From an uncultured Gammaproteobacteria bacterium (lineage in GTDB: Bacteria; Patescibacteriota; Patescibacteriia; Magasanikbacterales; GWA2-37-8): a stretch of 64,000 nucleotides of DNA. A program made the position numbers and the translations under genes. The stretch lies in NCBI GenBank assembly GCA_964496095.1, contig CAZBWU010000003.1:1901-65900 (forward strand). Reading direction: 5' to 3'. Under the pieces are notes generated by a model, which ran no database searches, had not been told where the DNA came from, and worked only from the letters and a program-made list of their open reading frames with translations. Below, in pieces: positions 1 through 64,000 of this stretch; the stretch's first letter is position 1, and each line of letters begins with the position of its first letter.

Positions 1-350
1 CCGCACAAAACACATTTAAACCCATCTCGTTGCATTACTTGGTACCTAAGCTTGGGTTGGATGCCTTTTCGCATGTCTTTTGATTTTACCGATCGTTTGA
101 GGTGTTCGTATGACTTTCTTCCTTTCTCAATAGACAAGTTGAAAGCATCGCTAAAATTTCTTATCACATTTAATTTTTTAAGTTGACGTTGGATTGATCT
201 TGGTGTTATGGAAATTTTTGTTTTTAAAAGTAATTCGTCAGCTATTTCTATAGAAGAAAGTTTTTTATTCAAATAAAGATCCGAAATAACAGTATCAAAG
301 CTCTTCTGTAGAAGATGGGATATTCTTTGGGATTTGTTTAGATTAGCCAT
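1..350 (-). CDS. HNH endonuclease-like protein, 5' partial (N-terminal 116 aa visible; continues beyond window start)
   Basis: Reverse-strand ATG at 348-350 opens a frame running off the window. Translation MANLNKSQRISHLLQ...KLRYQVMQRDGFKCVLCG ends in the RDGxxCxxCG beginning of an HNH motif. Not in the ORF track because it is truncated. Confidence 0.35.
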   Translation of the reverse strand, partial: MANLNKSQRISHLLQKSFDTVISDLYLNKKLSSIEIADELLLKTKISITPRSIQRQLKKLNVIRNFSDAFNLSIEKGRKSYEHLKRSVKSKDMRKGIQPKLRYQVMQRDGFKCVLC

Positions 351-433
351 ATTGAATTGAGTGTAAGAGATATTATACTCAATTATATAATACTCCTAAA
401 ATAGAGTCAAATAACTTATTAACACCTCTCCCC

Positions 434-1495: not shown

Positions 1496-1513
1496 GTGCT
1501 TATTAGTGTGTAT

Positions 1514-2617: not shown

Positions 2618-2632
2618 ACAAAATATAATTGT

Positions 2633-3868
2633 TTAGAGTTTTTCAAAGCCGGTATATTTTTGTAAAACTTTTGGAATAAGAACGCTGCCATCAGCTTGCT
2701 GGAAGTTTTCAACAATGGCAATTGGAAAACGGCTCAGTACCACCGCAGTGCCATTTAAGGTATGAACAAATTCATTTGAGCCGTCTTCTTTTTTGTATTT
2801 AATATTAAGTCTGCGCGCTTGGTAGTCTGTACAGTTGCTAGTACTGGTTATCTCTCCGTAATCATTTTTCATAGTCATCCAAGCCTCAATATCATATTTG
2901 CGATATGCTGGTCCGCCTAGATCACCACTAGCAATATCAATCACTCTGTATGGTATTTCTAGGCCAGTAGCAATTTCCCGCTCGATACCCAAGAGCTCTT
3001 GGTGCATTTTCTCACTATCTTCCGGTCGACAATAGACAAACATTTCCAATTTTGTGAATTGGTGTACTCGGTATAAACCCTTGCTAGTACGTCCGTAGGC
3101 ACCAGCTTCTTTGCGGAAACAATGTGAAACAGCCGCGTATTTGATTGGTCCTTTTGACAAGTCTAAAACTTCGTTGGCATGATAACCACCCATAGTTATT
3201 TCAGCGGTACCAATCAAGCTCATCTCTTCGCCGGCTACTTGGTAAATTTGGTCTTCTTCACCTCTTGGATTAAAGCCAAGGCCAGTCAGGATTTCGTTTT
3301 TAGCCATATCTGGTGTTTCTACCAGGGTAAAACCATGGCGGCTAACAACATCCATACCGTAATTTATTAAGGCTTGATTGAGTCGTACTAGATTATTTTT
3401 GGTAAAATAAAACTTGGAACTAGCCACTTTGGCGCCACGTTCAAAATCAATCAAATCAAGGTTTGTCATTAATTCCTCATGGTCTTTGGCAGGGAAAGAA
3501 AACTCAGGTGGATTACCACTTGTTATAATAACTTTATAATCCTCTTCTCCGCCGACTGGAGTTTCTGAGTGAGTAAGATTAGGAATTTTTAATAAAAGAT
3601 CCAAATATTTTGGTTCTAAATCTGATATTTTATTTTCCAACAAAGCTATCTCATCCCCCATTTTACGAAGCTTTAGCATGTCTTCTTCGCTGGGCTTGCC
3701 TTTGGATTGGCTTTTTCTTTGAGCCCTTAAGCTCTCTATTTCTTTTTGAATAGAGCGTTTTTCTTCGTCAATTTTTAATAGTTCGTCTAGATCTACTTTA
3801 ACAAAACGATTAGCGCAATTTTGTCTTATTAACTCTATGTTTTCTCTGATAAATTTTATGTCTAGCAT
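2633..3868 (-). CDS. serS: seryl-tRNA synthetase
   Basis: N-terminal coiled-coil tRNA-binding arm, class II motifs (FRKEAGAYGRTSKGLYRVHQFTKLE), GTAVVLSRF near the C-terminus. Confidence 0.9.
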   Translation of the reverse strand: MLDIKFIRENIELIRQNCANRFVKVDLDELLKIDEEKRSIQKEIESLRAQRKSQSKGKPSEEDMLKLRKMGDEIALLENKISDLEPKYLDLLLKIPNLTHSETPVGGEEDYKVIITSGNPPEFSFPAKDHEELMTNLDLIDFERGAKVASSKFYFTKNNLVRLNQALINYGMDVVSRHGFTLVETPDMAKNEILTGLGFNPRGEEDQIYQVAGEEMSLIGTAEITMGGYHANEVLDLSKGPIKYAAVSHCFRKEAGAYGRTSKGLYRVHQFTKLEMFVYCRPEDSEKMHQELLGIEREIATGLEIPYRVIDIASGDLGGPAYRKYDIEAWMTMKNDYGEITSTSNCTDYQARRLNIKYKKEDGSNEFVHTLNGTAVVLSRFPIAIVENFQQADGSVLIPKVLQKYTGFEKL

Positions 3869-3920
3869 ATTGATTTAACGAAATCACGTCGCGCAATCGT
3901 CTATTGAAGCGCGACGGTTT

Positions 3921-4946
3921 TTACTTAATATATTTTAAAAGTATTTTTTTGTTATTTTTAGATTGAATAAGTTTTTTGTTCAAAGGTAACATGTCCATCT
4001 TCAAAGCTTCTTTGTAGGTAAACCATCCATAGTCAGAACTTTCGGCTTCAGCTATTTTTATTTTTCCCGACACGATTGAGCAAATACACATAAATAAATG
4101 TACTTGGTAGTGTTCTTTTTTAACGAGAGACGTCAAAATATCAGGCAACTGTTCTTCAACCTTCACCTTAAAGCCGGACTCTTCTAGGACTTCATCTCTT
4201 ACTGTCTCTATAAAAGTTGCACCGTCTTCTACTCCACCACCGGGAAATTCCCACTTGTCATTAAAGTCAGGTCTATGGTCACGTCGTTTGGTCATAAGCA
4301 TCTTGCCGTCTTTGACAACAATGCCAGCAGCGCAGATTATTTGTTTTGGTTGGTAATTTTTTATTAAAAAATACCTAACCTGGTTAATCATCTTTCCTCT
4401 GTGGCTAATTCTGTTTTTTTCTAAAATATTCATTTCAGAAAATAATTTTTTAAGGTTCGGAAAATAAAAAATCGGATCATAACCCATATCTTCATTGAGA
4501 TCGCTGCCAATTTTATCTGTAATCAAACCATCCAACCTTCCGTTAAACGTAAAAAAATTATCTGTTTGTGGATCAAAAAGACAGCCAGTAGTTTCAAAGT
4601 AAGCACTGCGTTTTTTTTCAGGTATGCCTTTTAATTGTTCTAAAATTTTAGTATTTCTCTCTAGAGCTGTCGGGGCGTATCTTTTTGATTTTATTCCAGG
4701 TTGACCTTTTAGATGATTTATAAATAAGCCTGTGTCTTCGGCTAAAGTCAGTAGCCCACTTTTTTTTGCAAAAAATCTAGCCTTTTCTAAAGCATTTTGC
4801 CAAGTGGTGTCGTGCGGTTCATCTACTTCGATTTTGTCTAAGCCTACGTCTTTGAGGCTGACAAACTTAAAATGCATGTCGGCCAACTCAGCTGTTATTT
4901 CTCTAAACTTTTCTTTATTACCAGTAGCGATAAGAATTTTTTGCAT
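3921..4946 (-). CDS. fusion protein: RdgB/HAM1 non-canonical NTP pyrophosphatase (N-terminal) + NUDIX hydrolase (C-terminal)
   Basis: N-terminus MQKILIATGNKEKFREI...KGQPGIKSKRY matches the HAM1/RdgB family. The C-terminus carries the Nudix box GGGVEDGATFIETVRDEVLEESGF. Confidence 0.75.
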   Translation of the reverse strand: MQKILIATGNKEKFREITAELADMHFKFVSLKDVGLDKIEVDEPHDTTWQNALEKARFFAKKSGLLTLAEDTGLFINHLKGQPGIKSKRYAPTALERNTKILEQLKGIPEKKRSAYFETTGCLFDPQTDNFFTFNGRLDGLITDKIGSDLNEDMGYDPIFYFPNLKKLFSEMNILEKNRISHRGKMINQVRYFLIKNYQPKQIICAAGIVVKDGKMLMTKRRDHRPDFNDKWEFPGGGVEDGATFIETVRDEVLEESGFKVKVEEQLPDILTSLVKKEHYQVHLFMCICSIVSGKIKIAEAESSDYGWFTYKEALKMDMLPLNKKLIQSKNNKKILLKYIK

Positions 4947-5369: not shown

Positions 5370-6836
5370 CTATTCTTTATTTTCCGGTTTTAAGGTGGGG
5401 AATAAAATTACTTCTTTTAGATTTTGGACATCCATTAAAAGTTTGACTAGTCTATCAATACCCATGCCAAGACCTGCGGTTGGTGGCATGCCGTGCTTGA
5501 GAGCAGTCACAAAATCTTCGTCATAAGGCATGCTCTCTTCATCTCCGGCTGCGCCAAGGCGTTCTTGGTCTTTGAATCTTGATTCTTGATCTATTGGGTC
5601 GTTGAGCTCAGAGAAGCCATTACATAATTCGTTTCCTCCCACACAAACAAGCTGTAGACGTTCTACATATTTGTCGTTGTCGGTTTTGCGTTTGGCCAGT
5701 GGAGAAAGTTCTACTGGGTGGTCAATCATAAATATCGGATTGATGATTTTTGGTCGGGCGTAAGTTTTATAAATTTCATCAACCATCTTGCCATAGCCGG
5801 TATCCTTGTCCACGCCATCTATATGAAGATCTTTTATTTTTTCATATAAAGATTTTTGGTCAGCAAATTCTTCTATATCAATTTTGGCATATTCCATGAT
5901 AATTGCGCGCATAGTTTGGCGAGGATAAGGAGGGGTAAAATCAACATCATCATCCCCTACTTTAAATTTGAGAGGTAAGCCGGCGGCTGTAATTATTTTT
6001 GGTAATAAATCTTCTACCAAATTCATTAGATCTTGGTAGTTAGCATATGCCCAATAAAATTCAATCTGAGTAAATTCGGGATTATGATTATTGTCTATTC
6101 CTTCATTTCTAAAACATTTGGCTACTTCATAGACTTTTTCAAAACCACCAACAATCAAGCGTTTGAGATATAGCTCCGGAGCAACACGAAGATATAAAGG
6201 AATGTCTAAAGCATTGTGATGGGTCACAAACGGTTTGGCTAGAGCGCCACCATAAAGAGTTTGTAAAACTGGAGTTTCTACTTCAAAAAAACCTTTACTA
6301 TCAAAATAATTTCTAATTTCTCGAACGATAAGACTACGAACTTTGGCAATTCGCATTGATTCTTCGTTGGCAATCAAATCCAAATATCTTTGTCTGTACC
6401 TAGTTTCTATATCATTGAGACCGTGAAATTTTTCAGGCATCGGCAGAAGCGCCTTGCTTAGTAGTTGATATTTTTTTACTAGAACTGTCAGTTCGCCTTT
6501 GTGGGTAGTAAAAATATCGCCTTCAATATGCAAAAAATCACCTAAGTCAAAATATTTTATAAAAAGTTTATATTGGTCTTTGCCAAGTTCTTTTTCAGAA
6601 AAAGCGACTTGAATTTTACCGCTAGCATCTCTAAGATGAGAAAAACTAATTTTTCCCATCTCTCTTTTGGCTATAAGTCTCCCAGCAATTTTAACTGGAG
6701 TAGCTTCCGGCTTAGTCAAAGCTTCGGAAATAGAAATTCTTTCTTCTGTCAGGCTTGGGTAAGGATTAATACCAGCCGAGCGCAAATAATTTAGTCTTTC
6801 CAATCGTACGATATCTTCTCTGATTTCATTTGGCAT
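5370..6836 (-). CDS. lysS: lysyl-tRNA synthetase (class II)
   Basis: N-terminal OB anticodon-binding domain, class II motif 2 FRNEGIDNNHNPEFTQIEFY, motif 3 GMGIDRLVKLL. Confidence 0.9.
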   Translation of the reverse strand: MPNEIREDIVRLERLNYLRSAGINPYPSLTEERISISEALTKPEATPVKIAGRLIAKREMGKISFSHLRDASGKIQVAFSEKELGKDQYKLFIKYFDLGDFLHIEGDIFTTHKGELTVLVKKYQLLSKALLPMPEKFHGLNDIETRYRQRYLDLIANEESMRIAKVRSLIVREIRNYFDSKGFFEVETPVLQTLYGGALAKPFVTHHNALDIPLYLRVAPELYLKRLIVGGFEKVYEVAKCFRNEGIDNNHNPEFTQIEFYWAYANYQDLMNLVEDLLPKIITAAGLPLKFKVGDDDVDFTPPYPRQTMRAIIMEYAKIDIEEFADQKSLYEKIKDLHIDGVDKDTGYGKMVDEIYKTYARPKIINPIFMIDHPVELSPLAKRKTDNDKYVERLQLVCVGGNELCNGFSELNDPIDQESRFKDQERLGAAGDEESMPYDEDFVTALKHGMPPTAGLGMGIDRLVKLLMDVQNLKEVILFPTLKPENKE

Positions 6837-51423: not shown

Positions 51424-52800
51424 ATGAATTACCTCAAAAATTTTTCTCTTAGTGGCTTGACCGTGATTTTTTTGTCTATTTTTATAATTGGCAATGCCAA
51501 CACCGGTCTAGATGCGGTCTCTTTTCTACTTATCGCTTTTATTGTTTTACAAAAAATATTTGGAGAGTACTTTATTCTTATTCCTCTGGCGCTCCGCACT
51601 ATCCTGGACTATTGGCGAGATTATAATATTTTTTCATTTCATTTTTTTAACTTTAATATCAACGCCGCCCTCTCTTTATTTTTATTGATTTGGTCAATAA
51701 TATTTTTCATTAAAAATCATGAGTACTTCCGAAAAATTCCCTTAAATATAGTCTGGCCTGTGTTTATAGCTTGGTGCGCACTCTCATCTATTTATACCTA
51801 TAATATCTCATCAACATTTATTGAAACCTTAAAACTAACTAATTTGTTTAGCTTGTTTGGCATCTGCTATATTATGTCAGAAAAAGACGGAGGTAAATTC
51901 AAAAATACTTTTCTGAAATCCATGACAATAACTGCGGCCGTTCCAATCTCTGTTGCCACCTACCAGCTCATTACCAGAACTGGTATGACTATAGAAGAAA
52001 TCTCAAACCGAATATATGGCACTTTTACACACCCAAACGTCTTGGCCGCATTTGCCTTAGTAATGTTAATTGTTTTAGTTAACGAATTTTTAAAGACCAA
52101 AAAAGAAAATCGAAAGAAACTTAATCTGCTAAAATTCTTTAGCGTAATTCTTCTTCTAGTAATAGCCTTTACCTACACCCGCATCGCTTGGATTGGCACC
52201 GCCTTTTTGTTTATAGTGCTTGGCTTGGTCTATTACAGAAAAATTCTTCTATATACGCTAGGCGCCATTGTATTATTTTTTACTCTATTCTACCCTATCA
52301 ATAAATATCTAACCTCGCATTATAGCCTAAACTTACAAACAAATAGTCTGATAGCTCGCCTCACATCTCGCAACCCAGATTCTGATTCAGTCAGCTGGAG
52401 AACCGGGATTATTATGAAAACACTGCCGTTAATCAGAAAAAAATATTTAGCAGGCTATGGCTATGGCACTTTCCCTCGGGTGTGGGATGATAACAAAGAT
52501 CTGCAAAATATTTGGGACAATACTTCCGAAGCCCACAATGACTATATAAGAATCGCGCTTGAGTCAGGTATTGTTGGTTTGATTTTATTCCTTACTATCT
52601 TTACTAGTCTGCTATATAAACAGATAGGCATTACTTTCAAAACTCATTTTAAAAATATTGTTTTTCTCACTAGTATTTTTATCTACCTCATTTTAAGCCT
52701 CTCAGATAATATGCTTCATCATACGCCGGTAATCTGGTGGCTTTGGGCGGTATGGGGAGTTTGGATGCATGAAACAAAAATAGTTAACGCTAATTCTTAG
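51424..52800 (+). CDS. O-antigen ligase/polymerase-like (Wzy_C) membrane protein
   Basis: ~12 TM helices and the periplasmic-loop motif AHNDYIRIALESGIVGL. Start moved from 51406, which is inside the MITE, to the next Met (MNYLKNF). Confidence 0.65.
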   Translation: MNYLKNFSLSGLTVIFLSIFIIGNANTGLDAVSFLLIAFIVLQKIFGEYFILIPLALRTILDYWRDYNIFSFHFFNFNINAALSLFLLIWSIIFFIKNHEYFRKIPLNIVWPVFIAWCALSSIYTYNISSTFIETLKLTNLFSLFGICYIMSEKDGGKFKNTFLKSMTITAAVPISVATYQLITRTGMTIEEISNRIYGTFTHPNVLAAFALVMLIVLVNEFLKTKKENRKKLNLLKFFSVILLLVIAFTYTRIAWIGTAFLFIVLGLVYYRKILLYTLGAIVLFFTLFYPINKYLTSHYSLNLQTNSLIARLTSRNPDSDSVSWRTGIIMKTLPLIRKKYLAGYGYGTFPRVWDDNKDLQNIWDNTSEAHNDYIRIALESGIVGLILFLTIFTSLLYKQIGITFKTHFKNIVFLTSIFIYLILSLSDNMLHHTPVIWWLWAVWGVWMHETKIVNANS

Positions 52801-53220
52801 AATCCGCCAGAGGCGGATTGTTAGCCAGATGGATTCAAACTTCACCACTTTCAGTGGTTCTTTTTCATCTCATCGCTAACAACAAAAAAACCATCCAGAG
52901 AGAGTCACCTAAATAACTAATCGAAATTATTTATTCAGGCGATCGGATGGTGATTTTGCAAGACAGATAAATCTGTCTATTTTTATTTACTAACTTGTTT
53001 GCCCACTCCTTATTAAGGAGGGGGGGAGGTCTTATCTATAACCCCTCCTGCGCCTCCCCTTCTTAAAGGGAGGACAACTAGTAAATACAAATAGCTAGAT
53101 TTGAATTGTAGATTTGAAAGAGCGGTAAAGCCGAGGAGGAAGCGCGTAGGGTGACCAGGCTAACGCGTGTCGCGCAGCCCGGCAATAGCCAGGCGACATC
53201 CTCCTGTTTGGGAGTGGCGG

Positions 53221-54000
53221 TTAGCCGCCCCCGACCTTCACGACCACACTGGCCCGGTAGGGCCCGCACGCGATCGTGTAGGTGTAGGTGCCGGGGTTAC
53301 CATTCCCGGCCAGAAATATACTGCTACGGCCGGTGCCTGGCCGATCGATGGCGGGCCAATCACCATCGCCACTGGAGTCGCAGGCTGCTGCCAATGACTC
53401 CCAGTCGAGGTAAATTCTGTCGCCAGCCGCGACAGAATACCACCCACCGGTGTTCCAGGTGGCGGGCGTGGGCACGCCGGCGATGTTGACAAGGACATCA
53501 AAGCGCATCGCGTAGGCCACCAGGGCCTTCGCGTCGCTCATGTCCTCATCCTCGCACACCAGACCGTAGATCGTCTCGCCGAATGGCAGGACGACCTCAG
53601 TCTGCCCAGTCGTCGGCGGCAGGTCCTGGGCCACCCAGTCCCCGCTAACCTGCGCCACGCCGTTGATGGCGGTCGCCCGTTCGCAGGTAGTGGACGAGAT
53701 GGCACTTACCACCTCGTAGCCGAGGACCACCGGCTCCCCAACACGGAGGTTCCGCACCTCCTGCGGGGCCGCCAGCTCCGCGGCCGTGAGGCTCACGGAG
53801 AGAACAGGCCTCGGCGGCAGCGGCAGGCCGATCTCCTGGTTGCCCAGGAACCCCACTGCGGCCGCCGGCGGCTTGCCCGGAGGCTGGTCATCGCCACCCC
53901 CGCCAGCGGGGGTGAAGCCGCACCCCTCGAGAAGGAGTGCGAGCGCGAAGACGAGCGCGCAGAGCGCGCACACCAAGAGGCATTTACGGATGTCCCACAT
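53221..54000 (-). CDS. GC-rich island gene 4: secreted lipoprotein
   Basis: MWDIRKCLLVCALCALVFALALLLEGCG has a lipobox, and AGGGGG lies 8 nt upstream. GC content ~68%. Confidence 0.55.
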   Translation of the reverse strand: MWDIRKCLLVCALCALVFALALLLEGCGFTPAGGGGDDQPPGKPPAAAVGFLGNQEIGLPLPPRPVLSVSLTAAELAAPQEVRNLRVGEPVVLGYEVVSAISSTTCERATAINGVAQVSGDWVAQDLPPTTGQTEVVLPFGETIYGLVCEDEDMSDAKALVAYAMRFDVLVNIAGVPTPATWNTGGWYSVAAGDRIYLDWESLAAACDSSGDGDWPAIDRPGTGRSSIFLAGNGNPGTYTYTIACGPYRASVVVKVGGG

Positions 54001-54457
54001 GATGGACACCCCCTTTCCGGCCCAAGCGGGCCATTACCCAACGGGCCCAGAAAATGTCAAAGTACCGAACGACACAGCATGTGTCGCCCTTCATTGAGTT
54101 TAGAAAATCAATTCTAAACTCTAGAAGAACAACATTTTTTTAAAATGCTATACATTTAGTATAGCATTTTAGTTTTTTTCTGACTATTTATAATCTTTTA
54201 GAACCTATCATTCCCCTACCTAGTAGGAAAATAAATTAGTTTTAAACTTTAAACCTTGCTTCCGACGAGGTGTGTGTTACCACAACACCTCGTCGTCCTC
54301 ACCTAGACCTGGCCGTGGCGCTCGAAACTCGAGCGGCCAGATTGGCCATGCGATGGTCCAGAGTGAGATTTTGGGCAGCTTGTTAAAGCCACCACTTCCC
54401 TGGGGGTAAAACCCCTCCTCCGATTAGGGCAGGTCGGATGAGGCTCGAGGCGCGCTA

Positions 54458-55129
54458 CTACGGCAGGGTGTGCCGGTTGCGCCCGTCGATGTTGCAGCCG
54501 AAGCCACCCTCCCCACCGGCCAGCCAGTAGGCCGGTTGGGTCGCCGGCTGGCCCGGCCACGACAGGTTGCAGGTGCAGCCCTGCGGGAGGTGGGCCAGCC
54601 ACCACGCCGGACCCTTGGTGAAGTCCTCCCAGCGGAGGACCCACAGGATCGTGACCGACGTGGCCGTCGTCGGCGCGACGCGGTTGCCGCTGCCGTTGGC
54701 CGCGAGGGGCACCGGGTCGCCGACCGGCGTGGCCGCCGGGGCGGCGTACCACTGGACGCCCGTGGTGATCCGCTCGAGATCCGTGCTGGCCGCGCACGTG
54801 ATCGACCAGGGCTGGCCGGTCGGGCTGCAGACGTTCGGGCTGGCCGTGTTGCAGGACCAGCCGGTCTCGACCGTGCAGGTCGAGCTGCAGCCGTCGCCGT
54901 TGGCGAGGTTGCCCTGGTCGCACTGCTCGGCGCCGGCCTTGATGCCGTCGCCGCAGATGGCGGCGGACGGGGCGTCCGGGGGCGTCACCGCACCGTCGAT
55001 CGGGGGCGGGTTGGCGGCGTCGACCTCGTCACCGCCGGAGGGGTTCTCGCCCTCCATGGTGCAACCGACGCCGATGACCGCCGTGATGCCGATGATGGAC
55101 GCGCACAGGAACTTGCTGAACTTGAACAT
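54458..55129 (-). CDS. GC-rich island gene 1: secreted Cys-rich protein with Myxococcales-type Cys repeat
   Basis: GGAGG SD 5 nt upstream, signal peptide MFKFSKFLCASIIGITAVIGVGC, and the repeat ICGDGIKAGAEQCDQGNLANGDGCSSTC. Confidence 0.6.
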   Translation of the reverse strand: MFKFSKFLCASIIGITAVIGVGCTMEGENPSGGDEVDAANPPPIDGAVTPPDAPSAAICGDGIKAGAEQCDQGNLANGDGCSSTCTVETGWSCNTASPNVCSPTGQPWSITCAASTDLERITTGVQWYAAPAATPVGDPVPLAANGSGNRVAPTTATSVTILWVLRWEDFTKGPAWWLAHLPQGCTCNLSWPGQPATQPAYWLAGGEGGFGCNIDGRNRHTLP

Positions 55130-55626
55130 GAGAACCTCCGCTTGAGAATGCGTCCACCGCCGGAATGGCGACAGACATTGGGAAACGTTGGGTGCCGAAC
55201 AACTTGGTTTGATTCCTTGCATCTCCAATACGATAGGAGATGAGGATTCTTACCTTGTTCTCGACATTTCAATATCCCTTATTAAATAAAGAATGGTTTT
55301 AATTCTTTGCTTAATGCGGGATATTGATCCGGGTGGTTCTTCTTTTTTGATTGGTTTGATTTGTAAAGAGCTGATTTCCATCTCTATCATTCCCCTATCA
55401 TATAAGGAAATGATTCGATGTGGCCAGGTGCGTGAGCAGAGCTGGCCGTCGATCCGAACGAGGGCCTCCTAGATCCTCGTCGGGGTGATGGCGACTGCAG
55501 TGGCTCCGGATGGAGCCAACGAACAGCACGCACAGGATGTGCAGGTTGACGACGCGGGCGACGCGCGTCGTCGCTCCGACCGGTTGCACTTCCGGTCGGA
55601 GGGGGGTGGGGTCAGAGCGCGACGCG
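55130..55626. repeat. island upstream module copy A (leader + promoter + terminator block)
   Basis: 55257-55626 is ~100% identical (one 1-nt indel) to 56586-56962. 55111-55270 is identical to 57496-57670 apart from 1 nt. Confidence 0.9.
55214..55246 (-). promoter_or_regulatory. conserved 5'-leader hairpin (catctcc...ggagatg) ~85 nt upstream of the start codon
   Basis: Retained in all three leader copies (55214-55246, 56553-56585, 57609-57641) even in the diverged copy B. Confidence 0.5.
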
Positions 55627-56460
55627 GACACCGCCGAAGCCGGCACCGACGATGCTCTTGTCGAGCGGCGCCATCTCCGGCGCGTCGTAGGTCTGCCGGA
55701 GCACGTCGCCCCGCAGGAACACCTCGACACCGAGCTTCTTCGACTCGACCTGGTAGACCGCCTCGAAGGCCGCGCCGTAGAAGCGGAGGGTCGGGGTGTC
55801 CAGCATGTTCCCGAGGTGGATGCGCTGGGTGATCGTGGCGCCGCCGGCGAGCATGATGTGCTCGCTGACGTAACCGTGGATCATCGCATCCGCCCCGTAC
55901 ATGCCCTTCCCCTCGTCGCCGGCGGCGCCACCCTCGTTGATGCCGAGGCGGCCGGTCAGCCGCATCCGACCGTCGAGGAAGGTACCGGAGAAACCGACGA
56001 AGCCGACCGGTCCGGCCTCGCCCATGTACCCGCCCAGGAGCCCGATGTGCAACCGGCCGGGCTTCGTCTGCCGGGTGGCGAGGCGCGCGAGCGCCTCGGC
56101 CTGCGCCTTCTGCGCGGCCGCCAGCTCGTCGAGACGGGCCTTGTCGGCCTGCTGGGCCGCGAGCGCGTCGGCCTGCTGCTTGGCGAGCTCGTCGAGCCGC
56201 TTCTGCTGGTCGCTGCCCTCCATCTCGATGCCCTCGTCGCCGGGGGCCGTGGTGAAGTGGGTGCACGCACCCACTTCGACTTCGACGGTCTTGGTGACGA
56301 GCGGGCCGCCCTCGATGGTCTTCATGCCGTCGGGGCAGGGCTGCGTCGTGACGATGACCTTGTGGTTGTCATCCTCCGCCGCCGCCGGCTTGACGCCGAT
56401 GACGGTGAGGCTGGCGACCGCGACGATGGACGCGCACAGGAACTTGCTGAACTTGAACAT
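55612..56460 (-). CDS. GC-rich island gene 2: secreted protein with coiled-coil and beta-rich C-terminal domain
   Basis: GAGGAG SD, signal peptide MFKFSKFLCASIVAVASLTVIGV...AAA, an Ala/Gln-rich coiled coil, and an alternating-hydrophobic C-terminal half. Confidence 0.55.
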   Translation of the reverse strand: MFKFSKFLCASIVAVASLTVIGVKPAAAEDDNHKVIVTTQPCPDGMKTIEGGPLVTKTVEVEVGACTHFTTAPGDEGIEMEGSDQQKRLDELAKQQADALAAQQADKARLDELAAAQKAQAEALARLATRQTKPGRLHIGLLGGYMGEAGPVGFVGFSGTFLDGRMRLTGRLGINEGGAAGDEGKGMYGADAMIHGYVSEHIMLAGGATITQRIHLGNMLDTPTLRFYGAAFEAVYQVESKKLGVEVFLRGDVLRQTYDAPEMAPLDKSIVGAGFGGVRVAL

Positions 56461-56962
56461 GACGTAGCTCCTCATGAGAGAGTGGTGCGTCCATCGCCGG
56501 AATGGCGGACGGACATTGGGAACCATTCGGGTATCGAACAACTCAGTTTGATTCCTTGCATCTCCACTACGATAGGAGATGAGGAGTCATTCTTTGTTCT
56601 CGACATTTTCAATATCCCTTATTAAATAAAGAATGGTTTTAATTCTTTGCTTAATGCGGGATATTGATCCGGGTGGTTCTTCTTTTTTGATTGGTTTGAT
56701 TTGTAAAGAGCTGATTTCCATCTCTATCATTCCCCTATCATATAAGGAAATGATTCGATGTGGCCAGGTGCGTGAGCAGAGCTGGCCGTCGATCCGAACG
56801 AGGGCCTCCTAGATCCTCGTCGGGGTGATGGCGACTGCAGTGGCTCCGGATGGAGCCAACGAACAGCACGCACAGGATGTGCAGGTTGACGACGCGGGCG
56901 ACGCGCGTCGTCGCTCCGACCGGTTGCACTTCCGGTCGGAGGGGGGTGGGGTCAGAGCGCGA
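56461..56962. repeat. island upstream module copy B
   Basis: See copy A. The leader part (56461-56588) has diverged by ~20%, while the 370-bp promoter/terminator block is identical. Confidence 0.9.
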
Positions 56963-56963
56963 C

Positions 56964-57524
56964 CTACTTGGTGATCGAGACGACGGTCGCCGCCTTGCTG
57001 CCGAGGTTGCGGGCACGCCGCAGGTTGTTGAACTGCGCCTGGAGGCGCAACATGTCCGCCGCGAAGCGGCGGATGAACCACCCCTGCATGTGATCGCGGT
57101 TCTGGGCGTGCTTGGCCATGGCGACGGGGTCCGGCGTCGCGCAGTCCGCGCTGCAGCCGTCGCCGTCCTGCGTCACGCAGACCGCGTCGTCGCCGGGGCA
57201 CTCGCTGTCCCGGGTGCAGAACGCACCCTTCTGGGGTCCGCTGTCGCAGTGACGACCGTTGTCGCACGCCTCGCCGTCCTCGACGACGTCGTTGCCGCAG
57301 ACGGCGTCCCACGACATGTTGATGGTGGCGGTGACCCAGCTGCAGTCCGCGCTGCAGCTATCGCCGTCGACCTTGTTGCCGTCGTCGCACATCTCGTCGC
57401 CGGCGGCGGTGCCGTCGCCGCAGACGACGGGCGGATCCTCCGCCGACGCCGACTTGACGCCGACGGTGGCGACCACGAGCCCGAGGATGATGGACGCGAA
57501 CGTGAGCTTGCTGAACTTGCACAT
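56964..57524 (-). CDS. GC-rich island gene 3: secreted Cys-rich protein with Myxococcales-type Cys repeats
   Basis: GGAGG SD, signal peptide MCKFSKLTFASIILGLVVATVGV, and repeats VCGDGTAAGDEMCDDGNKVDGDSCSADC and VCGNDVVEDGEACDNGRHC. Confidence 0.6.
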   Translation of the reverse strand: MCKFSKLTFASIILGLVVATVGVKSASAEDPPVVCGDGTAAGDEMCDDGNKVDGDSCSADCSWVTATINMSWDAVCGNDVVEDGEACDNGRHCDSGPQKGAFCTRDSECPGDDAVCVTQDGDGCSADCATPDPVAMAKHAQNRDHMQGWFIRRFAADMLRLQAQFNNLRRARNLGSKAATVVSITK

Positions 57525-57740
57525 GAGAACCTCCGCTTGAGAATGCGTCCACCGCCGGAATGGCGACAGACATTGGGAAACGTTGGGTGCCGAACAACTT
57601 GGTTTGATTCCTTGCATCTCCAATACGATAGGAGATGAGGATTCTTACCTTGTTCTCGACATTTCAATATCCCTTATTAAATAAAGAATGGTTTTAATTC
57701 TTTGCTTAATGCGGGATATTGATCCGGGTGGTTTCGCTGT
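57525..57740. repeat. island upstream module copy C (leader identical to A; promoter part truncated/diverged beyond 57740)
   Basis: Matches the A leader and the first ~85 nt of the AT-rich promoter block. Confidence 0.85.
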
Positions 57741-58102
57741 TTGGTTTGGTTGGGTTGTATGGTTTCACATACAAACTCATTCGCTCGACAATACTTTGCT
57801 TGCAAAGTATTGTTCTCGCTCATTTCGATTGTAAAGAGCTTATGCCTACTATTCTTGTTTGAACTACCAATTGCATATATAACTCAATTGATAATTCCAT
57901 TTAAAAACAGTAAAACCTCTACTTTGTGAGAGAGGCTACATATATAGACTATTTACCTGCTTTGTTGATGGCCTAGACAATACTCTCTCACGATATTGCG
58001 TTGGCCGTTAAAAAATCAACAATAGAATACTATACCACAAACTGGAGATATTGTCAAGAGTTCAATGAAAGTATAGCGGAATAATCTGTATTTTTTGGCT
58101 AA

Positions 58103-58136
58103 CTATAAACAAAAATGCCCTAGTATTAGGGCATTT
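58103..58136 (-). terminator. rho-independent terminator of the giant gene
   Basis: Perfect stem aaatgcccta-gtat-tagggcattt followed on the minus strand by TTGTTTAT. Confidence 0.55.
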
Positions 58137-58160: not shown

Positions 58161-61100
58161 CTATCTTCCGCCAAGTATTTGTTGAGCAATCTTTTCACGC
58201 TGGCCAGCTTGACCATTAATCATAGCTATTGCTTCATTGTGCGTATATCTAATTACTTCACCTGTTTTAGAATTATTTTCAATAAGTTCGTCCTTATCGA
58301 CTGTAAATGTGCTACCCTCAGAAATAAACAAACGCTCGTTACCATTATCCATTAATCGAAATCCATTACTGCCGTTAGCCAACATGTCGGCCTTACTATC
58401 ATTAGACTCCTTGATTAAATCTATGATAGACATTTTAATTCCTCCAAATTTATCAGATGCTCCCCCTTTATAGGTGGCAATTGCCTTTTGTATATAATTA
58501 TAATTTTGTCGATCGGTAGCATCTAGGGCGGTACCGGCAACAATCTTATTTTCTATGCTTTCCATTGGACCTACCAAATGAGACGTCACCATATCTTCTA
58601 ATACCCTAATACTTCCTGGATCTACCTGAAAAAAATGACTCTCAGCGACCAAAGAAACATCCTTTAAAATTGTTTCTAAATCGTTTCCAATTTTTGGAAG
58701 CTCCTCTACAATTTCTACTATTTTTATTTCTTGTTCATGAGGTGTTGTATCAGGTGTGACTACTGCTGACTTCGCACCAGCTCCTGTATCAGGAGTAGTT
58801 CCACCACCCGAGGTCTGTTTATCAAAATCAACTCCAAAATCTTTAGCAATACCCTTAGCAAACTCTCCTGCTTGTGTGCCAGCCTTACCAAGACTATCAG
58901 CGGTATTCTTGACGGCATTCGTTAATGCCTGTTTATCTTGTTCTGTAGGCGGCACAGCTGCCATGGTTTCGCCAGCGTTTCCACTGCTCGTAGGCAAAGC
59001 TTCTACTACCTGACCACTTGGCCTAAATGTTTCTAGGGTTTTAACCTTAATTGTCCTTTGTTCGCCAAGCAAGCCCTCTCCAATAGGCACTGGATGACGG
59101 TGACCTTTGGAATCAAGCACGCCCTGAGCTCGGTTTAACACCTCAACATGCTCGGCTCCGGCTTGAGCAAATTTTATTTTATCGCCTTCTATCTCTGCCA
59201 ACACGGCTCGCTCATCAGCAGTCATCTCGGATGCCGGAACATTATTTTCGGTGTGTTCTCTATATGGATGATCACCTTGCATCTCATTTATTTTGCTGGC
59301 ATTATTCCACATTTGTTTATCAGGATTTTTATCAATAGCTATCTTGCGTCCACCCACAACTCGCATTTGATCCTTGGTAACATAGCCATCTTTACCCTCT
59401 ACAGCACTAAGAATTGGCTTACCTTTTTCATCTACACCAAAACTATAGATATGCCCATGAATATGAAGATCTACCCCCTTACCAGTAAGTCTGGCGTTGG
59501 CAAAATCTTGATTTTCTTCTCCTTGCATAGATCTCCACAACCCCTCTACCATCTTATGATCGGAACCATCTGTCTCTTTATATTTTGCTGCAAACGCTTT
59601 CCAATCAACTTTAGCGCTGGTCTTACCTTTACCTACCCAATCTTCAATGTATTTGAGTTGCGGACGACTAAATTTGAGGCTCTCTAAATATTTTGCCGCT
59701 CTTTCCGGACCGCCTTTGTCTAAAATTTCTTCAAAAATTACTTGCTGGCGTTCGGCTCCCACTTCTACCTCGGTATTTATTTCATATTTAATAAAACCGT
59801 GATGAGAATGCACACCGCTTCCACCTTCACTAGCTGACAATATACGTTGCAAAGATTCCGAATTGTTCAATTCTGGGAAACCTTTTTCACCGGTGACTAA
59901 TTTTTCTAAATGGGGATAAAAATCTTTATCTAATTTATTGTCGACGCCAAATTCTCGCACCGCTGATCCTGGTGTACGAACTTCAGCTATAGGTTGATCT
60001 GCTTCGACCGCAGTTCCTGGTTTATGCGAATCTCCTCCTGGTTGAGGCGCTGCTGGAATTGGAACTGGTATTGGTTCCGGGTGCGCTTGAGCAACCGCAT
60101 CATTCATCGCTCTTTTTAATATACCGTGGTCTGTTTGGCCCCCACCAGTTATCTTATCTTTTATGCTTTCAAGAGTTTCAATCGGATTAGCCACTGCATG
60201 TACGACACGCCCATAACTTTCCAAAGCCCGGCTAGCATTATGGATAGGTTCCTCCCAAATTTTTAAAACTTGACCGCTTTCAACACGATCAATAATCGCA
60301 TCTATTTGCTCTCCAGGTGAAGCGTGTGATGAAAGAAGGGAGCCGTAGATACCAACCGCGCGAGCGATAGTGCCCAAGGCTTTGACAAAATCCATAGCCT
60401 TACCAGTTCCACTCGTACCTTTCTTTGCTCCTTGCCCAGCCAAAGAACGCACTGTTTCCCAAGCAGCCCTTACCGTTACATCTTTGGCCACAAAACCAAA
60501 CTCCGATTCACCGTTAATGCTACCAGCATTCTTATACGTGTGTTCTCTACGTGCTTTTTGGACTCTTTCTGCTACAGAACCAACCGCATAGCCAATACCA
60601 CGCGCAAACAAACCGCCGCCAAGTGTCAGGAGCGTGTTGAGGCCATCTTTGGCAATTTGCGCCCCAGAAACTTTGGCGTGAATATACGATTCTAATAGAC
60701 GCCTGACTTCCGCATCTCTCTCTTCTCTGGCTTCATCCGTGTCTTCTTGGTGTTTGATCGAAATTGCCCATATTCTTTCTGTGATCTGCTGTTTAGCTTC
60801 TGGGCTAATTTTTTTGGTATCATTAATTATTGATTTTAAATCTTCCAAACGAACTCCCACTCCTTCATCCAAAGCCGAGGGCTCTCCTTTTTTTGTTCTT
60901 TCTGAAGATTGGAGTAATTTTTGATATGCATCAAAAATTGATTCCACAAATACCTTAGATTCTTTAGTGCCTTTTCTCCACTCGGCTATATCTCCCTTAC
61001 CAAAAGCTGCAAGGCCTAAATCAGTGATAGTCTTTATACCTAAGACTGAAGTTATTGTATTATAAGCAACTTTTCTGGAAAATTTACGTGTTTCTTTATC

Positions 61101-63989
61101 TTTAAAGGCATCCTTAAAACGCTCCCACCGACTCTTGTCTGGTGGAGGAGGAACTACTGTATCGGCTGGTTTTTTCTTGCCAAAACCTAACAATCCACCA
61201 ATGCGGGATATGATGCCTTTTTTTTCTGGAACAGCAACTATAGAGCCGTCTAAGAATTCAGATTCTGGGGACAATCCTTGTAATGCATCTTGAAATTGTT
61301 GATAGACATCTTTATTTGGATCATTTTTTACTAATTCTATAAATTCTGCAAGTTTAATTTTTACATTGTCTGTAGCAGCTAAGAATGCTTTAGACTCTTC
61401 TTCTGATGTGACTGGTAAATTACGTGCGTCATCAATAATACTAACTAGAGCGTCATAAGAGCCAAGATATTTATTTACTAGTTTAACATTCTTTTTATCC
61501 TTATATAAATTATTAAAAACTTCAGCTAATTTTGTAAGGTCTCTTTCATAGTTAATCAAACGTTCCTCTGCCATAGTTTCTGGTGAAGGTAAATCATTGA
61601 AATCTTCATACAAAGATGTGACACCACCTTCTATTTCCGTAATTAGAGGTTCCAACTCATTCTTACCATCAACTGCTTCGGCTGAAGTAATTTTAACTTC
61701 AATTTCATTAATTTTTTTTTCTATAGCTTCTGTACCAACTTTTTGGGGTAAATAATAATCTCTTAATCTTTGCAGATTTTTTTTAGTATTAGCAAGGGAT
61801 CTTGTTTGAATTTCCGTTTTTCGTTCTGGCAGAGCGCGGATATCTGCCGATAATTGACCAGAAAGAATTGTTTCTATCTGAGAAACCAAACCTTTCAATT
61901 TGCCATAATCTGTACACGTCTCTGCTTCTGTTATTTTACTCTCTAGATCTGCCATTGTAGCATCTATGGCCAGTGTCGAGATTCTTTTCTCTAATCGAGA
62001 CTCCAGGAGTGTAAAATAATTCTTATGACCAATCAAACTAGCTTCCAAATCCAAAGCTTCTATATCTTTTAATATCTCCTCAAGGAGATTATCTAATTCA
62101 GCATTTGGAGTTGAATTTATCAGTTCAATCTTATCATGAATAGGTGGCAACTTTGGTTCTAAGACAGTGAGCCTATTATCAGCGGCAAGACGGCTTCTTA
62201 AATCTCTAAATCTATTTGGAATGATTCTATCTATCCTAAATCTCTGCGCATCGGTAAGCAAAGACAGGTCAGGTCCAAGTGGCGGAAGGACATCCGTTCC
62301 AGCCCGAGGAAGTGGATCAAAATCCGGAAACTCTACATCTGGCTCTGATGAGCCAGCAGGTGGAAGCGCATTAAAATCTTCGTATAATTGCAAAATATCT
62401 CTATCTAGCACCAAAAGGAGAGGTTTTAATTCAGACTTATTAATAAAAGGTACTTTAGCCAAGGTCAAATTTGCCTCAATTTCATCAATTTGAGCTTTCA
62501 ATCTATCTGAATAGGCTTTTGTATGCAATCCATTTTTTACTATAGCTAAATTTTCTTTATACTCCCGTAATTTTTCTTCTTGCTCTGATGTCACAGATTC
62601 AACAGTATCCGAAGCACCAGTAGCTGCGTCAGGAGTTGGAACTGTTTTAGCAGGAAGCTTGCTTATATCTGCGCGCAGAGCATCAAGAATACCTTGTATG
62701 GTTTGAAGTATACCTTCCAAGGTGTTTTTATCGGTACATCTATTTGCCACTTCTAAATTCTTTTTCAACCGTATAAGCCCTGATTCAAGCCTAATCATCT
62801 CCTCATCTTCCCCATCTCTTTTATCTAGCATACCTCCGAGTAACACAAGCTGATCTCGACAATGTCGCAATTTTACTTTTTGCTGATCAGAAATAGGCTC
62901 GGTAGGTGGAGCTACATCCCCTTTAGCCGGAAGTGCCTCTATTTCCGCGACTAAATTACCAAGGCCTGTTTTTATACCATCAAGCGCAACAGCCATATCG
63001 GCACGCGTACGAATATGGCTCAATCTGGTATTCCCTATTTTGACATCAACTTCATCAAGCTTATCCTCCATACCTGGAGTACCTTGTTTTTGCATCAAAA
63101 GATCTTTTAACCTTTGAAGTTCCGTCCTATACCCTTGACGCACATTTATCTGTTCATTAGTAATAAACTCTTGAGAGGCCGGATTTCCAGCTACTCTACT
63201 CTCAAATTCCTGTTTTACTTGAGGCAGTAACTTATTTTCAATTTTCCCAAAATACTTGCCTACAGCTTCCATTTTTTTATCATAAACTTCAAGGTCATTT
63301 GTGCGCGCAGCCTGGTTTAAACATCTTTCTATATCAGTCACCCAGCCAGATATTTTGGATTTCTGTTTATCAGACATCATTTCATCACGAACCGTCACTA
63401 AAATACCTAGTTTACGCTCTGCTTTTTTTCGCTTTTCTATTCTATTCTCAGACTTCTCAGCATCGCTTTGACTTGGATTATCTGCACCATTCTCAGCCTT
63501 AGGTTCAGGCACTTTTTTCTTCGCCTTCAAAGCCTCCATTTCTGTATGAAATTGCTCCAATAAATCATCGACTTCTTTAGTTTTATTCTTGGAAAAATTC
63601 CATTTTTTATGATCAAACGCACTCTTCTCTGTTAAAAACGCCTTAATAAGTTCTTTTACCTTTTCTGTTAAACCAACCATCTCGGCACTATCTTTACCAA
63701 ATTTTTTTTCCATTTCTGCAATCTCTGGTCCAAGAGTTTTAAGATCTTCATCGTGTTTTTTTAATTTTTGACTATAGATTTTTTCTGGATCTAGCAATAC
63801 TTCTTTTTTAACGGCCAATGTTCGAAGTCCAACTTCAATATGTCCTAAAAGATTTTCAACAGTGGCCTTATTTTTACTAGCATAGTCAGACGACTTAAGG
63901 CTCTCTTCTAAACTCTTACATCGACGCAACAGTTCTTTTATCTTAGTTCTACTTTCAGGCAACGCGGCAGTCCCTGATAAATCTTCCAA
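58161..63989 (-). CDS. giant protein (>1,942 aa; N-terminus probably beyond the window end), largely alpha-helical/coiled-coil with a Gly/Thr-rich linker
   Basis: Single uninterrupted minus-strand frame with host-like AT-rich codon usage. The only large ORF on either strand here. I could assign no catalytic motif with confidence (GVDLHIHGHIYSFG and HSHHG noted). Confidence 0.7.
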   Translation of the reverse strand: MEDLSGTAALPESRTKIKELLRRCKSLEESLKSSDYASKNKATVENLLGHIEVGLRTLAVKKEVLLDPEKIYSQKLKKHDEDLKTLGPEIAEMEKKFGKDSAEMVGLTEKVKELIKAFLTEKSAFDHKKWNFSKNKTKEVDDLLEQFHTEMEALKAKKKVPEPKAENGADNPSQSDAEKSENRIEKRKKAERKLGILVTVRDEMMSDKQKSKISGWVTDIERCLNQAARTNDLEVYDKKMEAVGKYFGKIENKLLPQVKQEFESRVAGNPASQEFITNEQINVRQGYRTELQRLKDLLMQKQGTPGMEDKLDEVDVKIGNTRLSHIRTRADMAVALDGIKTGLGNLVAEIEALPAKGDVAPPTEPISDQQKVKLRHCRDQLVLLGGMLDKRDGEDEEMIRLESGLIRLKKNLEVANRCTDKNTLEGILQTIQGILDALRADISKLPAKTVPTPDAATGASDTVESVTSEQEEKLREYKENLAIVKNGLHTKAYSDRLKAQIDEIEANLTLAKVPFINKSELKPLLLVLDRDILQLYEDFNALPPAGSSEPDVEFPDFDPLPRAGTDVLPPLGPDLSLLTDAQRFRIDRIIPNRFRDLRSRLAADNRLTVLEPKLPPIHDKIELINSTPNAELDNLLEEILKDIEALDLEASLIGHKNYFTLLESRLEKRISTLAIDATMADLESKITEAETCTDYGKLKGLVSQIETILSGQLSADIRALPERKTEIQTRSLANTKKNLQRLRDYYLPQKVGTEAIEKKINEIEVKITSAEAVDGKNELEPLITEIEGGVTSLYEDFNDLPSPETMAEERLINYERDLTKLAEVFNNLYKDKKNVKLVNKYLGSYDALVSIIDDARNLPVTSEEESKAFLAATDNVKIKLAEFIELVKNDPNKDVYQQFQDALQGLSPESEFLDGSIVAVPEKKGIISRIGGLLGFGKKKPADTVVPPPPDKSRWERFKDAFKDKETRKFSRKVAYNTITSVLGIKTITDLGLAAFGKGDIAEWRKGTKESKVFVESIFDAYQKLLQSSERTKKGEPSALDEGVGVRLEDLKSIINDTKKISPEAKQQITERIWAISIKHQEDTDEAREERDAEVRRLLESYIHAKVSGAQIAKDGLNTLLTLGGGLFARGIGYAVGSVAERVQKARREHTYKNAGSINGESEFGFVAKDVTVRAAWETVRSLAGQGAKKGTSGTGKAMDFVKALGTIARAVGIYGSLLSSHASPGEQIDAIIDRVESGQVLKIWEEPIHNASRALESYGRVVHAVANPIETLESIKDKITGGGQTDHGILKRAMNDAVAQAHPEPIPVPIPAAPQPGGDSHKPGTAVEADQPIAEVRTPGSAVREFGVDNKLDKDFYPHLEKLVTGEKGFPELNNSESLQRILSASEGGSGVHSHHGFIKYEINTEVEVGAERQQVIFEEILDKGGPERAAKYLESLKFSRPQLKYIEDWVGKGKTSAKVDWKAFAAKYKETDGSDHKMVEGLWRSMQGEENQDFANARLTGKGVDLHIHGHIYSFGVDEKGKPILSAVEGKDGYVTKDQMRVVGGRKIAIDKNPDKQMWNNASKINEMQGDHPYREHTENNVPASEMTADERAVLAEIEGDKIKFAQAGAEHVEVLNRAQGVLDSKGHRHPVPIGEGLLGEQRTIKVKTLETFRPSGQVVEALPTSSGNAGETMAAVPPTEQDKQALTNAVKNTADSLGKAGTQAGEFAKGIAKDFGVDFDKQTSGGGTTPDTGAGAKSAVVTPDTTPHEQEIKIVEIVEELPKIGNDLETILKDVSLVAESHFFQVDPGSIRVLEDMVTSHLVGPMESIENKIVAGTALDATDRQNYNYIQKAIATYKGGASDKFGGIKMSIIDLIKESNDSKADMLANGSNGFRLMDNGNERLFISEGSTFTVDKDELIENNSKTGEVIRYTHNEAIAMINGQAGQREKIAQQILGGR

Positions 63990-64000
63990 TTGTTTTTTCG

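Follow-up and report, generated by a model that had tools for sequence, protein, structure and literature searches.

A giant Mid-domain protein of Candidatus Magasanikbacteria and its small helical partner: a candidate scaffold of the cell envelope

A window of 64,000 nucleotides (nt) from contig CAZBWU010000003.1 (assembly GCA_964496095.1) ends within a minus-strand gene that encodes a giant protein of 1,974 amino acids (aa). This protein is best explained as the larger component of a core of two proteins not described before, in which a protein carrying a family-defining helical region, termed the Mid domain here, is paired with sm96, a small helical protein encoded directly upstream. Tentatively, we read the giant protein as a scaffold that would reside in the cytoplasm, dock at the membrane and belong to an envelope complex. 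The open reading frame (ORF), the operon, the protein family, the pairing of sm96 with the Mid domain and the absence of export signals, anchor signals and known domains are directly supported by the analyses described below.

The frame extends from position 63998 to 58164 over 1,945 sense codons without a stop, terminates in a TAG codon and continues up to the very edge of the window. ORF and size were as described in the initial annotation, which had noted a single 5.8-kb minus-strand frame leaving the window. The TTG at 63989 is merely the first possible start codon inside the window edge and not the true start. A complete product, P0001, was found in a public protein collection; it begins with MARKPGTGEG, is 100% identical over the part covered by the window and adds the 29 N-terminal residues encoded outside, by which the N-terminus that had been placed beyond the window was recovered. 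The separately assembled Logan contig SRR10036081_7600 (locus L001) was identical to the window across 6,297 nt (0 mismatches). Since this contig was assembled independently, the frame is not an assembly artefact, and the objection that it might be interrupted is removed as far as assemblies can do so. The gene has a GC content of 0.38-0.40 and a GC content at third codon positions (GC3) of 0.28, compared to 0.31 for ATP synthase beta and 0.33 for methionyl-tRNA synthetase (MetRS) in the same window, in line with the host-like composition initially reported. Glu, Lys and Leu account for 9.5%, 9.3% and 9.1% of the residues. A composition rich in these residues is typical of intracellular helical proteins.

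The Mid family was defined by an exhaustive HMMER profile search with residues 925-1974 against 1.84 billion representatives. This search retrieved 260 proteins at E<=1e-3, 153 at E<=1e-10 and 50 at E<=1e-30. A word-index search detected just the two orthologues P0002 and P0003, which are 42-43% identical to the giant protein in BLASTP and 46-47% in global alignments. The region common to the family comprises residues ~975-1315, and this part of the giant protein matched the profile of the orthologues with an E-value of 6e-194. Within family proteins of 250-2,400 aa the Mid domain starts anywhere from residue ~30 to ~1,300. Among the closer relatives two further modules, C1 and C3, recur as well. 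Both were also found without the Mid domain in proteins of ~1,600-1,900 aa with a different, non-helical-looking N-terminus, and C3 stands alone in a protein of 216 aa (P0018, P0021, P0034, P0023, P0051 and P0136 for both cases together). Because of their presence in giants lacking Mid, and of C3 on its own, C1 and C3 are mobile between giant proteins. Relatives of the giant protein were absent from 2.9 million viral contigs.

In L001 and in the orthologous loci a cluster of genes on one strand ends with the giant gene (Table 1). In Magasanikbacteria-like genomes an operon of five genes finishes with the sm96-Mid pair. In 12 out of 12 loci with upstream DNA, L001 included, the sm96 gene is located directly upstream of the Mid gene on the same strand. 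Loci named for this pairing are L001-L003 and L005-L012, the most distant being L011 and L012, the latter a 27%-GC contig with a Mid domain of 24% identity. The two genes are separated by 4-12 nt or overlap in several loci (L001-L003, L008, L012), and are ~200 nt apart in L009-L011. Seven further loci, among them some from the 0.1 and 0.2 µm fractions of Hainich groundwater, were obtained by scanning metagenome contigs for the Mid core, and partner genes were located by hidden Markov models (HMMs) of the partner proteins. The full order of five genes was present in L001, L002, L005, L008 and the diverged L010. It was partial in L003, in the truncated contigs L006 and L007 and in the diverged L009. 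A near-consensus promoter-like site precedes operon gene 1, no convincing same-strand terminator was detected between the operon genes, and an intrinsic terminator follows the giant gene.

The CpsC/Wzz-like product of operon gene 3 was recognized by TIGR01006 (7e-11) and PF02706 (1e-8), although its 42 bits are far below the curated cut-off of 296. For the product of operon gene 2, an HtrA-like profile matched DegP/DegQ structures with an E-value of 3e-9. The position of the catalytic serine is not conserved (FASGG, FNTGQ and FNVGE), so that this partner, judged by the serine position, is probably not an active protease but a non-catalytic protein of the protease fold. An active HtrA protease was rejected as a partner for the same reason. 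No family match was obtained for sm96 in the library searches. The wider neighborhood is made up of housekeeping genes (smpB, infC, rpmI and rplT), and genes of the Wzy_C and GHL15 families are situated near the operon. Neither a secretion ATPase nor any known secretion component was found in the operon.

The layout of the giant protein was derived from an alignment of three orthologues and from HMM searches with sub-regions (Table 1). Identity to the two orthologues is highest in C1, amounts to 54% and 51% in the Mid domain and to 44-52% in the N-terminal parts, and is lowest in C3. The N-terminal repeat copies cover residues 303-388, 397-480, 496-575, 684-754 and 756-835, and a less clear copy lies at ~600-680; each ends in an 'LP' motif followed by a Pro-rich linker. 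These repeats escaped a BLASTP self-comparison and were detected by HMMs built from single repeats, with copy-to-copy matches at independent E-values of 1e-5 to 1e-11 (hmmsearch). In our reading each copy may form a unit of three helices. In residues 1-975 a hydrophobic periodicity of 3.5 residues was observed in 21-33% of the 28-aa windows, where 5% would be expected. The longest run free of Pro and Gly is 54 aa, which points to bundles of short helices rather than to long coiled-coil or SMC-like arms. Hence, the protein initially called coiled-coil-rich is enriched in heptad-like periodicity in its first 975 residues, but it has no long arms. The distinct C-terminal region of ~350 aa described there resolves into C2, a linker and the fast-evolving C3; the Gly/Thr/Pro-rich linker GGGTTPDTGAGAKSAVVTPDTTP was present as reported.

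At the entry to the Mid domain stands the motif GIISRIGGLLGFGKKKP, whose family consensus is PKKG[LF]W.[RK].K[ED] and which may have a role at the membrane. Conserved motifs of the Mid domain itself are Y.T.TS.LGVK..TD, KVSG..IAKDALNTALTA.G...LRG..Y, ER..KA, KD....ET.R.L, DF.KA.G..R..GI and NF..N..R. All three hydrophobic-looking Mid segments contain conserved K, R or D and reach Kyte-Doolittle values of 1.1-1.3 only.

Table 1. Features of the giant gene and its protein, genes of the operon, and GC-rich islands in related loci. KD19, Kyte-Doolittle value over 19 aa; TM, transmembrane.
Feature	Residues	Coordinates	Strand	Remark
Giant ORF, with stop at 58161-58163	30-1974 of 1,974	58161..64000	-	runs off the window end
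N-terminal helical arm	1-300 (30-300 in window)	63186..63998	-	lineage-specific, common to three orthologues only
Repeat array, helical units of ~80-95 aa	303-835	61581..63179	-	HMM of each repeat against the protein
Entry motif GIISRIGGLLGFGKKKP, amphipathic/basic	~957-975	61161..61217	-	putative membrane-binding helix
Mid domain, family-defining, helical, ~340 aa	975-1315	60141..61163	-	profile searches, AlphaFold2 (AF2) model
Gly-rich helix 1 of Mid, marginally hydrophobic	1010-1029	60999..61058	-	KD19 1.26; not translocon-grade
Gly-rich helix 2 of Mid, marginally hydrophobic	1151-1171	60573..60635	-	KD19 1.11; summed Hessa +5.5 kcal/mol
Gly-rich helix 3 of Mid, marginally hydrophobic	1233-1252	60330..60389	-	KD19 1.29
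C1 module, most conserved	1380-1578	59352..59948	-	72% and 63% identity to two orthologues
C2 motif region	1675-1760	58806..59063	-	TLETFRPSG ... GKAG..A.EFAKGIA.DFG
Gly/Thr/Pro-rich linker GGGTTPDTGAGAKSAVVTPDTTP	~1760-1782	58740..58808	-	translation
C3 module, fastest-evolving, 195 aa	1780-1974	58164..58748	-	25% and 23% identity to two orthologues
Intrinsic terminator, 10-bp hairpin and T-run		58113..58136	-	25 nt past the giant stop; end of operon
Operon gene 1, polytopic membrane protein, 266 aa				Trp-rich
Operon gene 2, HtrA/DegP-like with PDZ, 354 aa		L001 1141-2205		N-terminal TM helix; just beyond the window end
Operon gene 3, CpsC/Wzz-like, ~205 aa				two TM helices, at both ends
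Operon gene 4, sm96, ~96 aa (96 aa)				helical
Operon gene 5, giant Mid-domain protein
GC-rich island in L002		15700-22400
GC-rich island in L007		5500-7354
GC-rich island in L008		8600-12100
GC-rich island in L009		7000-11582
GC-rich island in L010		6500-10300

Hydrophobicity was assessed by the Kyte-Doolittle scale and by the Hessa biological scale summed over 19-aa windows, which are simple calculations and not dedicated predictors. No signal peptide was recognized in the giant protein, whose N-terminus MARKPGTGEGMESVAHGE is hydrophilic (judged without SignalP), and the N-termini of ~60 relatives that were inspected are charged and hydrophilic. Among 150 family proteins not a single 19-aa window fell below +1 kcal/mol in the summed Hessa scale, i.e. 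translocon-grade TM helices are absent; the median of the minima per protein was +5.5 kcal/mol. By the same sum the three membrane partners reached -4.3, -1.4 and -0.1 kcal/mol and possess true TM helices. Anchoring of the Mid domain by a TM helix was rejected on the basis of these values. Neither a C-terminal LPXTG in the giant protein nor a Pfam match to an anchor domain (SLH etc.) was found. The absence of signal peptide, TM helix and LPXTG argues against the adhesin or effector considered in the initial annotation.

Searches of the giant protein against Pfam, NCBIfam, PADLOC and PHROGs yielded no significant family, the matches being confined to the operon partners, and the PDB sequences gave no significant match either. 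A Walker A motif ([AG]xxxxGK[ST]) occurs nowhere in the giant protein. Pfam detected no domain in 34 (5 + 29) full-length relatives, 24 Mid domains and 14 C1 modules, and PDB profile searches with Mid, C1 and sm96 found nothing. The AF2 model of the Mid domain, computed from an alignment of 24 sequences, is all-helical with a predicted local distance difference test (pLDDT) value of 73-93 in the core. Foldseek placed no neighbor beside this model in PDB or BFVD (best E-values 0.11 and 0.16, template modeling score <0.2). In the literature nothing was found on the accessions, on giant Candidate Phyla Radiation (CPR) proteins, or on high-GC islands in Patescibacteria. The earlier view that no domain can be assigned was borne out, with all libraries searched empty for the giant protein. 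Since these libraries contain no described family or system to which any part of protein, family or operon could be matched, the system is, as far as sequences can tell, new in kind.

Hypothetical proteins are common in CPR genomes, and Patescibacteria possibly make up a quarter of bacterial diversity. How such bacteria build their envelope or attach to hosts is known for a minority of them at most. Our approach turned an anonymous giant ORF into a searchable system consisting of a domain family of ~340 aa (~260 clusters), an obligate partner of 96 aa and a conserved operon of five genes. The sm96-Mid system provides targets for co-folding, metaproteomics and cryo-electron tomography. For now, the giant protein is of potential importance.

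From these data we infer a cytoplasmic location, docking at the membrane, contact with sm96 and an envelope-organising role. Synthesized in the cytoplasm, the giant protein would presumably stay there, because it is devoid of an export signal. Encoded by the directly preceding, tightly spaced gene, sm96 would bind it as partner or chaperone. The basic-aromatic amphipathic motif and the three Gly-rich helices of the Mid domain may dock the protein at the inner membrane face; alternatively, the docking surface may be offered by cytoplasmic portions of the operon's three membrane proteins. The N-terminal repeat rod and the C1 and C3 modules would then project as spacer and interaction platform, and this platform could organise an envelope or surface-glycan process. 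A scaffold is favored because export and anchor signals are absent in 150 relatives, the protein is rich in K, E and L, and the operon offers membrane proteins for docking. The role in a glycan or envelope process is proposed because of the partner related to polysaccharide co-polymerases (PCP) and the nearby Wzy_C and GHL15 genes.

Several points speak against such a scaffold. The giant protein evolves far faster than its partners (47% versus 68-85% identity between L001 and L002), its last 1,000 residues are free of cysteine, and a block of secreted-protein genes lies next door. Across the Mid family the N- and C-terminal parts are unrelated and freely swapped, and fast evolution combined with domain swapping is also typical of surface-exposed or host-contact proteins. 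Leaderless export is possible, the placement resting on sequence, and the three Gly-rich Mid helices could insert post-translationally in the manner of alpha-helical pore formers. The membrane-docking and sm96-binding steps are predicted. The Mid model is only moderately confident (overall pLDDT 64), and an AF2 model of the C-terminal 600 aa, computed from three sequences, was unusable at a pLDDT of 38.8 and was not used. The remaining probability, about a third, lies with something else than the explanations considered here.

Two known arrangements resemble the proposed scaffold in part. Spectrin-like scaffolds of the EzrA type and HMW2 of Mycoplasma are large, leaderless proteins with helical repeats which, at the membrane of wall-reduced or monoderm bacteria, organise envelope or attachment machinery. 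The giant protein would share size, lack of a leader and helical repeats with them. Similarity in sequence or profile was not detected, as Pfam gave no match for the giant protein, and its Mid, C1 and C3 modules are without counterpart; moreover, EzrA has an N-terminal TM helix, which is lacking in the giant protein. In monoderms CpsC, a protein of the PCP-2b type, acts with CpsD, a cytoplasmic bacterial tyrosine kinase. Similarly, cytoplasmic partner genes follow that of a CpsC/Wzz-like protein with two TM helices here, and a Wzy_C-family gene is near. However, these partners are sm96 and the giant protein, and no P-loop tyrosine kinase is among them, Walker A being absent from the giant protein; the CpsC-like match also stays far under its cut-off, as given above.

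Instead of remaining in the cytoplasm, the giant protein may be a non-classically exported or membrane-inserting host-contact protein that would serve an episymbiont as adhesin, tether or effector, which we consider possible but doubtful. In this case sm96 would serve as export chaperone, the Mid helices would enter the membrane of the producer or of the host, C3 would contact the host, and the island would belong to the same interaction locus. Fast evolution and modular termini (C3 being 23-25% identical between orthologues), the conserved Gly-rich amphipathic helices of the Mid domain, the 1,000 C-terminal aa without cysteine and the affiliation of the organism to the CPR would all fit, as would the GC-rich secreted-protein genes that adjoin in 6 out of 7 loci with downstream DNA. 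By analogy to what is generally known of secretion chaperones, the small helical partner gene directly upstream would fit as well. This explanation is opposed by the 150 relatives without signal peptide, anchor or TM helix, by an operon without known secretion components, by the K/E/L-rich composition, and by an island that forms a separate transcription unit and whose content is not conserved with the giant protein.

The remaining candidates are far less probable. A domesticated tape-measure-like protein of a phage together with its chaperone is very improbable: the small gene directly upstream and the long helical protein with central Gly-rich, semi-hydrophobic helices recall such pairs, and several tape-measure proteins were among the non-significant BFVD matches (E 0.4-2), but PHROGs and Pfam gave no tape-measure match, the viral contigs contained no relative, and the chromosomal context is one of housekeeping genes with no other phage genes. 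Also largely refuted is a polymorphic toxin (LXG, RHS or CdiA type), which would end in a toxin domain and be followed by its immunity gene; checks for such a protein had been proposed initially. The large size, the variable C-terminus and the small helical protein upstream are loosely reminiscent of the LXG toxins of monoderms with their Lap partners. No LXG, RHS, PT-TG or other toxin domain was detected, however, in Pfam, NCBIfam, PADLOC or PDB sequence searches, and genes of a type VII secretion system are missing. The terminator starts 25 nt past the stop and no same-strand ORF of at least 60 aa was found between the stop and the island, i.e. there is no immunity-like gene downstream. Furthermore, the C-termini of three orthologues are homologous and alignable rather than swapped, and the most conserved part is C1 and not an N-terminal delivery domain. 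An SMC-like or other coiled-coil ATPase of chromosome partition or the cytoskeleton, whose SMC-like form the initial annotation had named as an example of a known family that would refute its reading, is just as improbable. The size, helicity and cytoplasmic appearance of the giant protein and the heptad-like periodicity of its N-terminal half are in keeping with such a protein, but Walker A and SMC_N, AAA, hinge or Rad50 domains are absent, no run free of Pro and Gly exceeds 54 aa, and the operon partners are envelope proteins. Thus, membership in the SMC family is refuted, while a generic cytoskeletal role overlaps with the scaffold that we prefer.

Adjacent to the 3'-end of the giant gene lies a GC-rich island (window 52800-58100). 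Three of its ORFs have a GC3 of 0.94-0.96 and the fourth one of 0.81, compared to ~0.3 in host genes. GC-rich DNA (0.5-0.68) was found 3' of the Mid gene in 6 out of 7 loci with downstream DNA, namely in the window, L002, L007, L008, L009 and L010, and was missing in L011. In the window, L002, L008 and apparently L010 the island is located between the giant gene and a gene for a Wzy_C-type membrane protein. Homology among island proteins is confined to closely related loci, which indicates that the content turns over at a fixed site. Given this conserved position in six independent contigs from related low-GC genomes, the island initially termed foreign is not a one-off insertion, and such a shared chromosomal site is much more difficult to account for than one transfer event would be. 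The island proteins carry signal peptides and comprise Cys-rich DUF4215 repeats in the window, TSP_3 repeats in L009 and beta-rich proteins ending in Phe. The latter recall outer-membrane proteins, an unusual trait in a CPR bacterium.

Between the giant gene and the first island gene lie a terminator, a promoter and ~360 nt of non-coding DNA rich in AT, which makes the two genes separate transcription units. This promoter, TTGACA-17-TG-TATAGT at 58057-58029, is near consensus and lies 3' of the giant terminator. Hence, the cell-surface interaction locus that had been suggested holds in part: three envelope partners and the adjoining secreted-protein genes in 6 out of 7 loci are consistent with it, but giant gene and island are not co-transcribed. 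The adjacency supports an envelope or surface locus in a loose sense, any functional link to the giant protein being hypothetical.

An unlikely but far-reaching possibility is that sm96 and the Mid protein, together with the three membrane partners, constitute an envelope apparatus specific to CPR bacteria that mediates host contact and works with the neighboring gene-capture site, the giant protein being inserted or exported without a leader and engaging the host by its fast-evolving C-terminus. If this were true, the capture site would keep acquiring high-GC (GC3 ~0.95) secreted-protein genes (DUF4215, TSP_3, some ending in Phe), each captured gene would be fitted with a native leader, and the locus would both record and serve the contact between this bacterium and a diderm host of high GC content.

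Just past the terminator of the giant gene, and thus between this gene and the island, the minus strand carries a putative small RNA or conserved leader (window positions 57893-58057), with a counterpart in L002 (15805-16020). It consists of the promoter at 58057-58029 followed by ~130 nt ending in a hairpin and U-tract, and is ~80% identical to L002, while the flanking giant proteins are 47% identical. Its minimum free energy is -29.5 kcal/mol (z-score -2.1), with no covariation in the two sequences available. Rfam had no match in the window and the island, this candidate included. Near-identical leaders precede each island gene (window 55065-55566, 56396-56906 and 57460-57756), sharing repeats (80, 271 and 300 nt; 89-100% identity) and a hairpin CATCTCC-N8-GGAGATG. 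They run into a shared signal-peptide start, MFKFSKF..., and L002 has two related leaders (88% identity). Between the Mid gene and the GC-rich block of L009 an ORF of 203 aa is situated (5956-6567; ...FVTICT...MPNHVHGIVEI...), which by eye resembles an IS200/REP-associated tyrosine transposase and which we take to be a candidate only. A second GC-rich stretch (0.52-0.54) was found in L002 at 1-4000, ~6 kb upstream of the operon; GC-rich blocks may be present at more than one site per genome.

By its gene content the source of the window is a Candidatus Magasanikbacteria (Patescibacteria/CPR), an ultra-small groundwater bacterium. The ATP synthase beta encoded in the window is 93-95% identical to proteins named Candidatus Magasanikbacteria, in agreement with the small-genome CPR bacterium assumed at the outset. 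Core functions represented in the window include F-ATPase, MetRS, a lysyl-tRNA synthetase-type enzyme, PBP2, a Mur ligase, an AddA-like helicase-nuclease and transketolase. In the set of species-representative genomes the sole relative sits in a metagenome-assembled genome (MAG) titled 'uncultured Gammaproteobacteria bacterium'. Its contig of 78,117 bp encodes a Magasanikbacteria-type ATP synthase beta that is 92% identical to that of the window, and an origin from Gammaproteobacteria was rejected on this ground. The MAG label of L002/L004 (GCA_964514995.1, contig CAZETA010000003.1, 'uncultured Gammaproteobacteria') accordingly looks wrong. The same applies to the label of L012 (GCA_009937645.1, JAACFH010000052.1, 'Xanthomonadaceae bacterium'), a contig of 27% GC with a CPR-type sm96-Mid pair.

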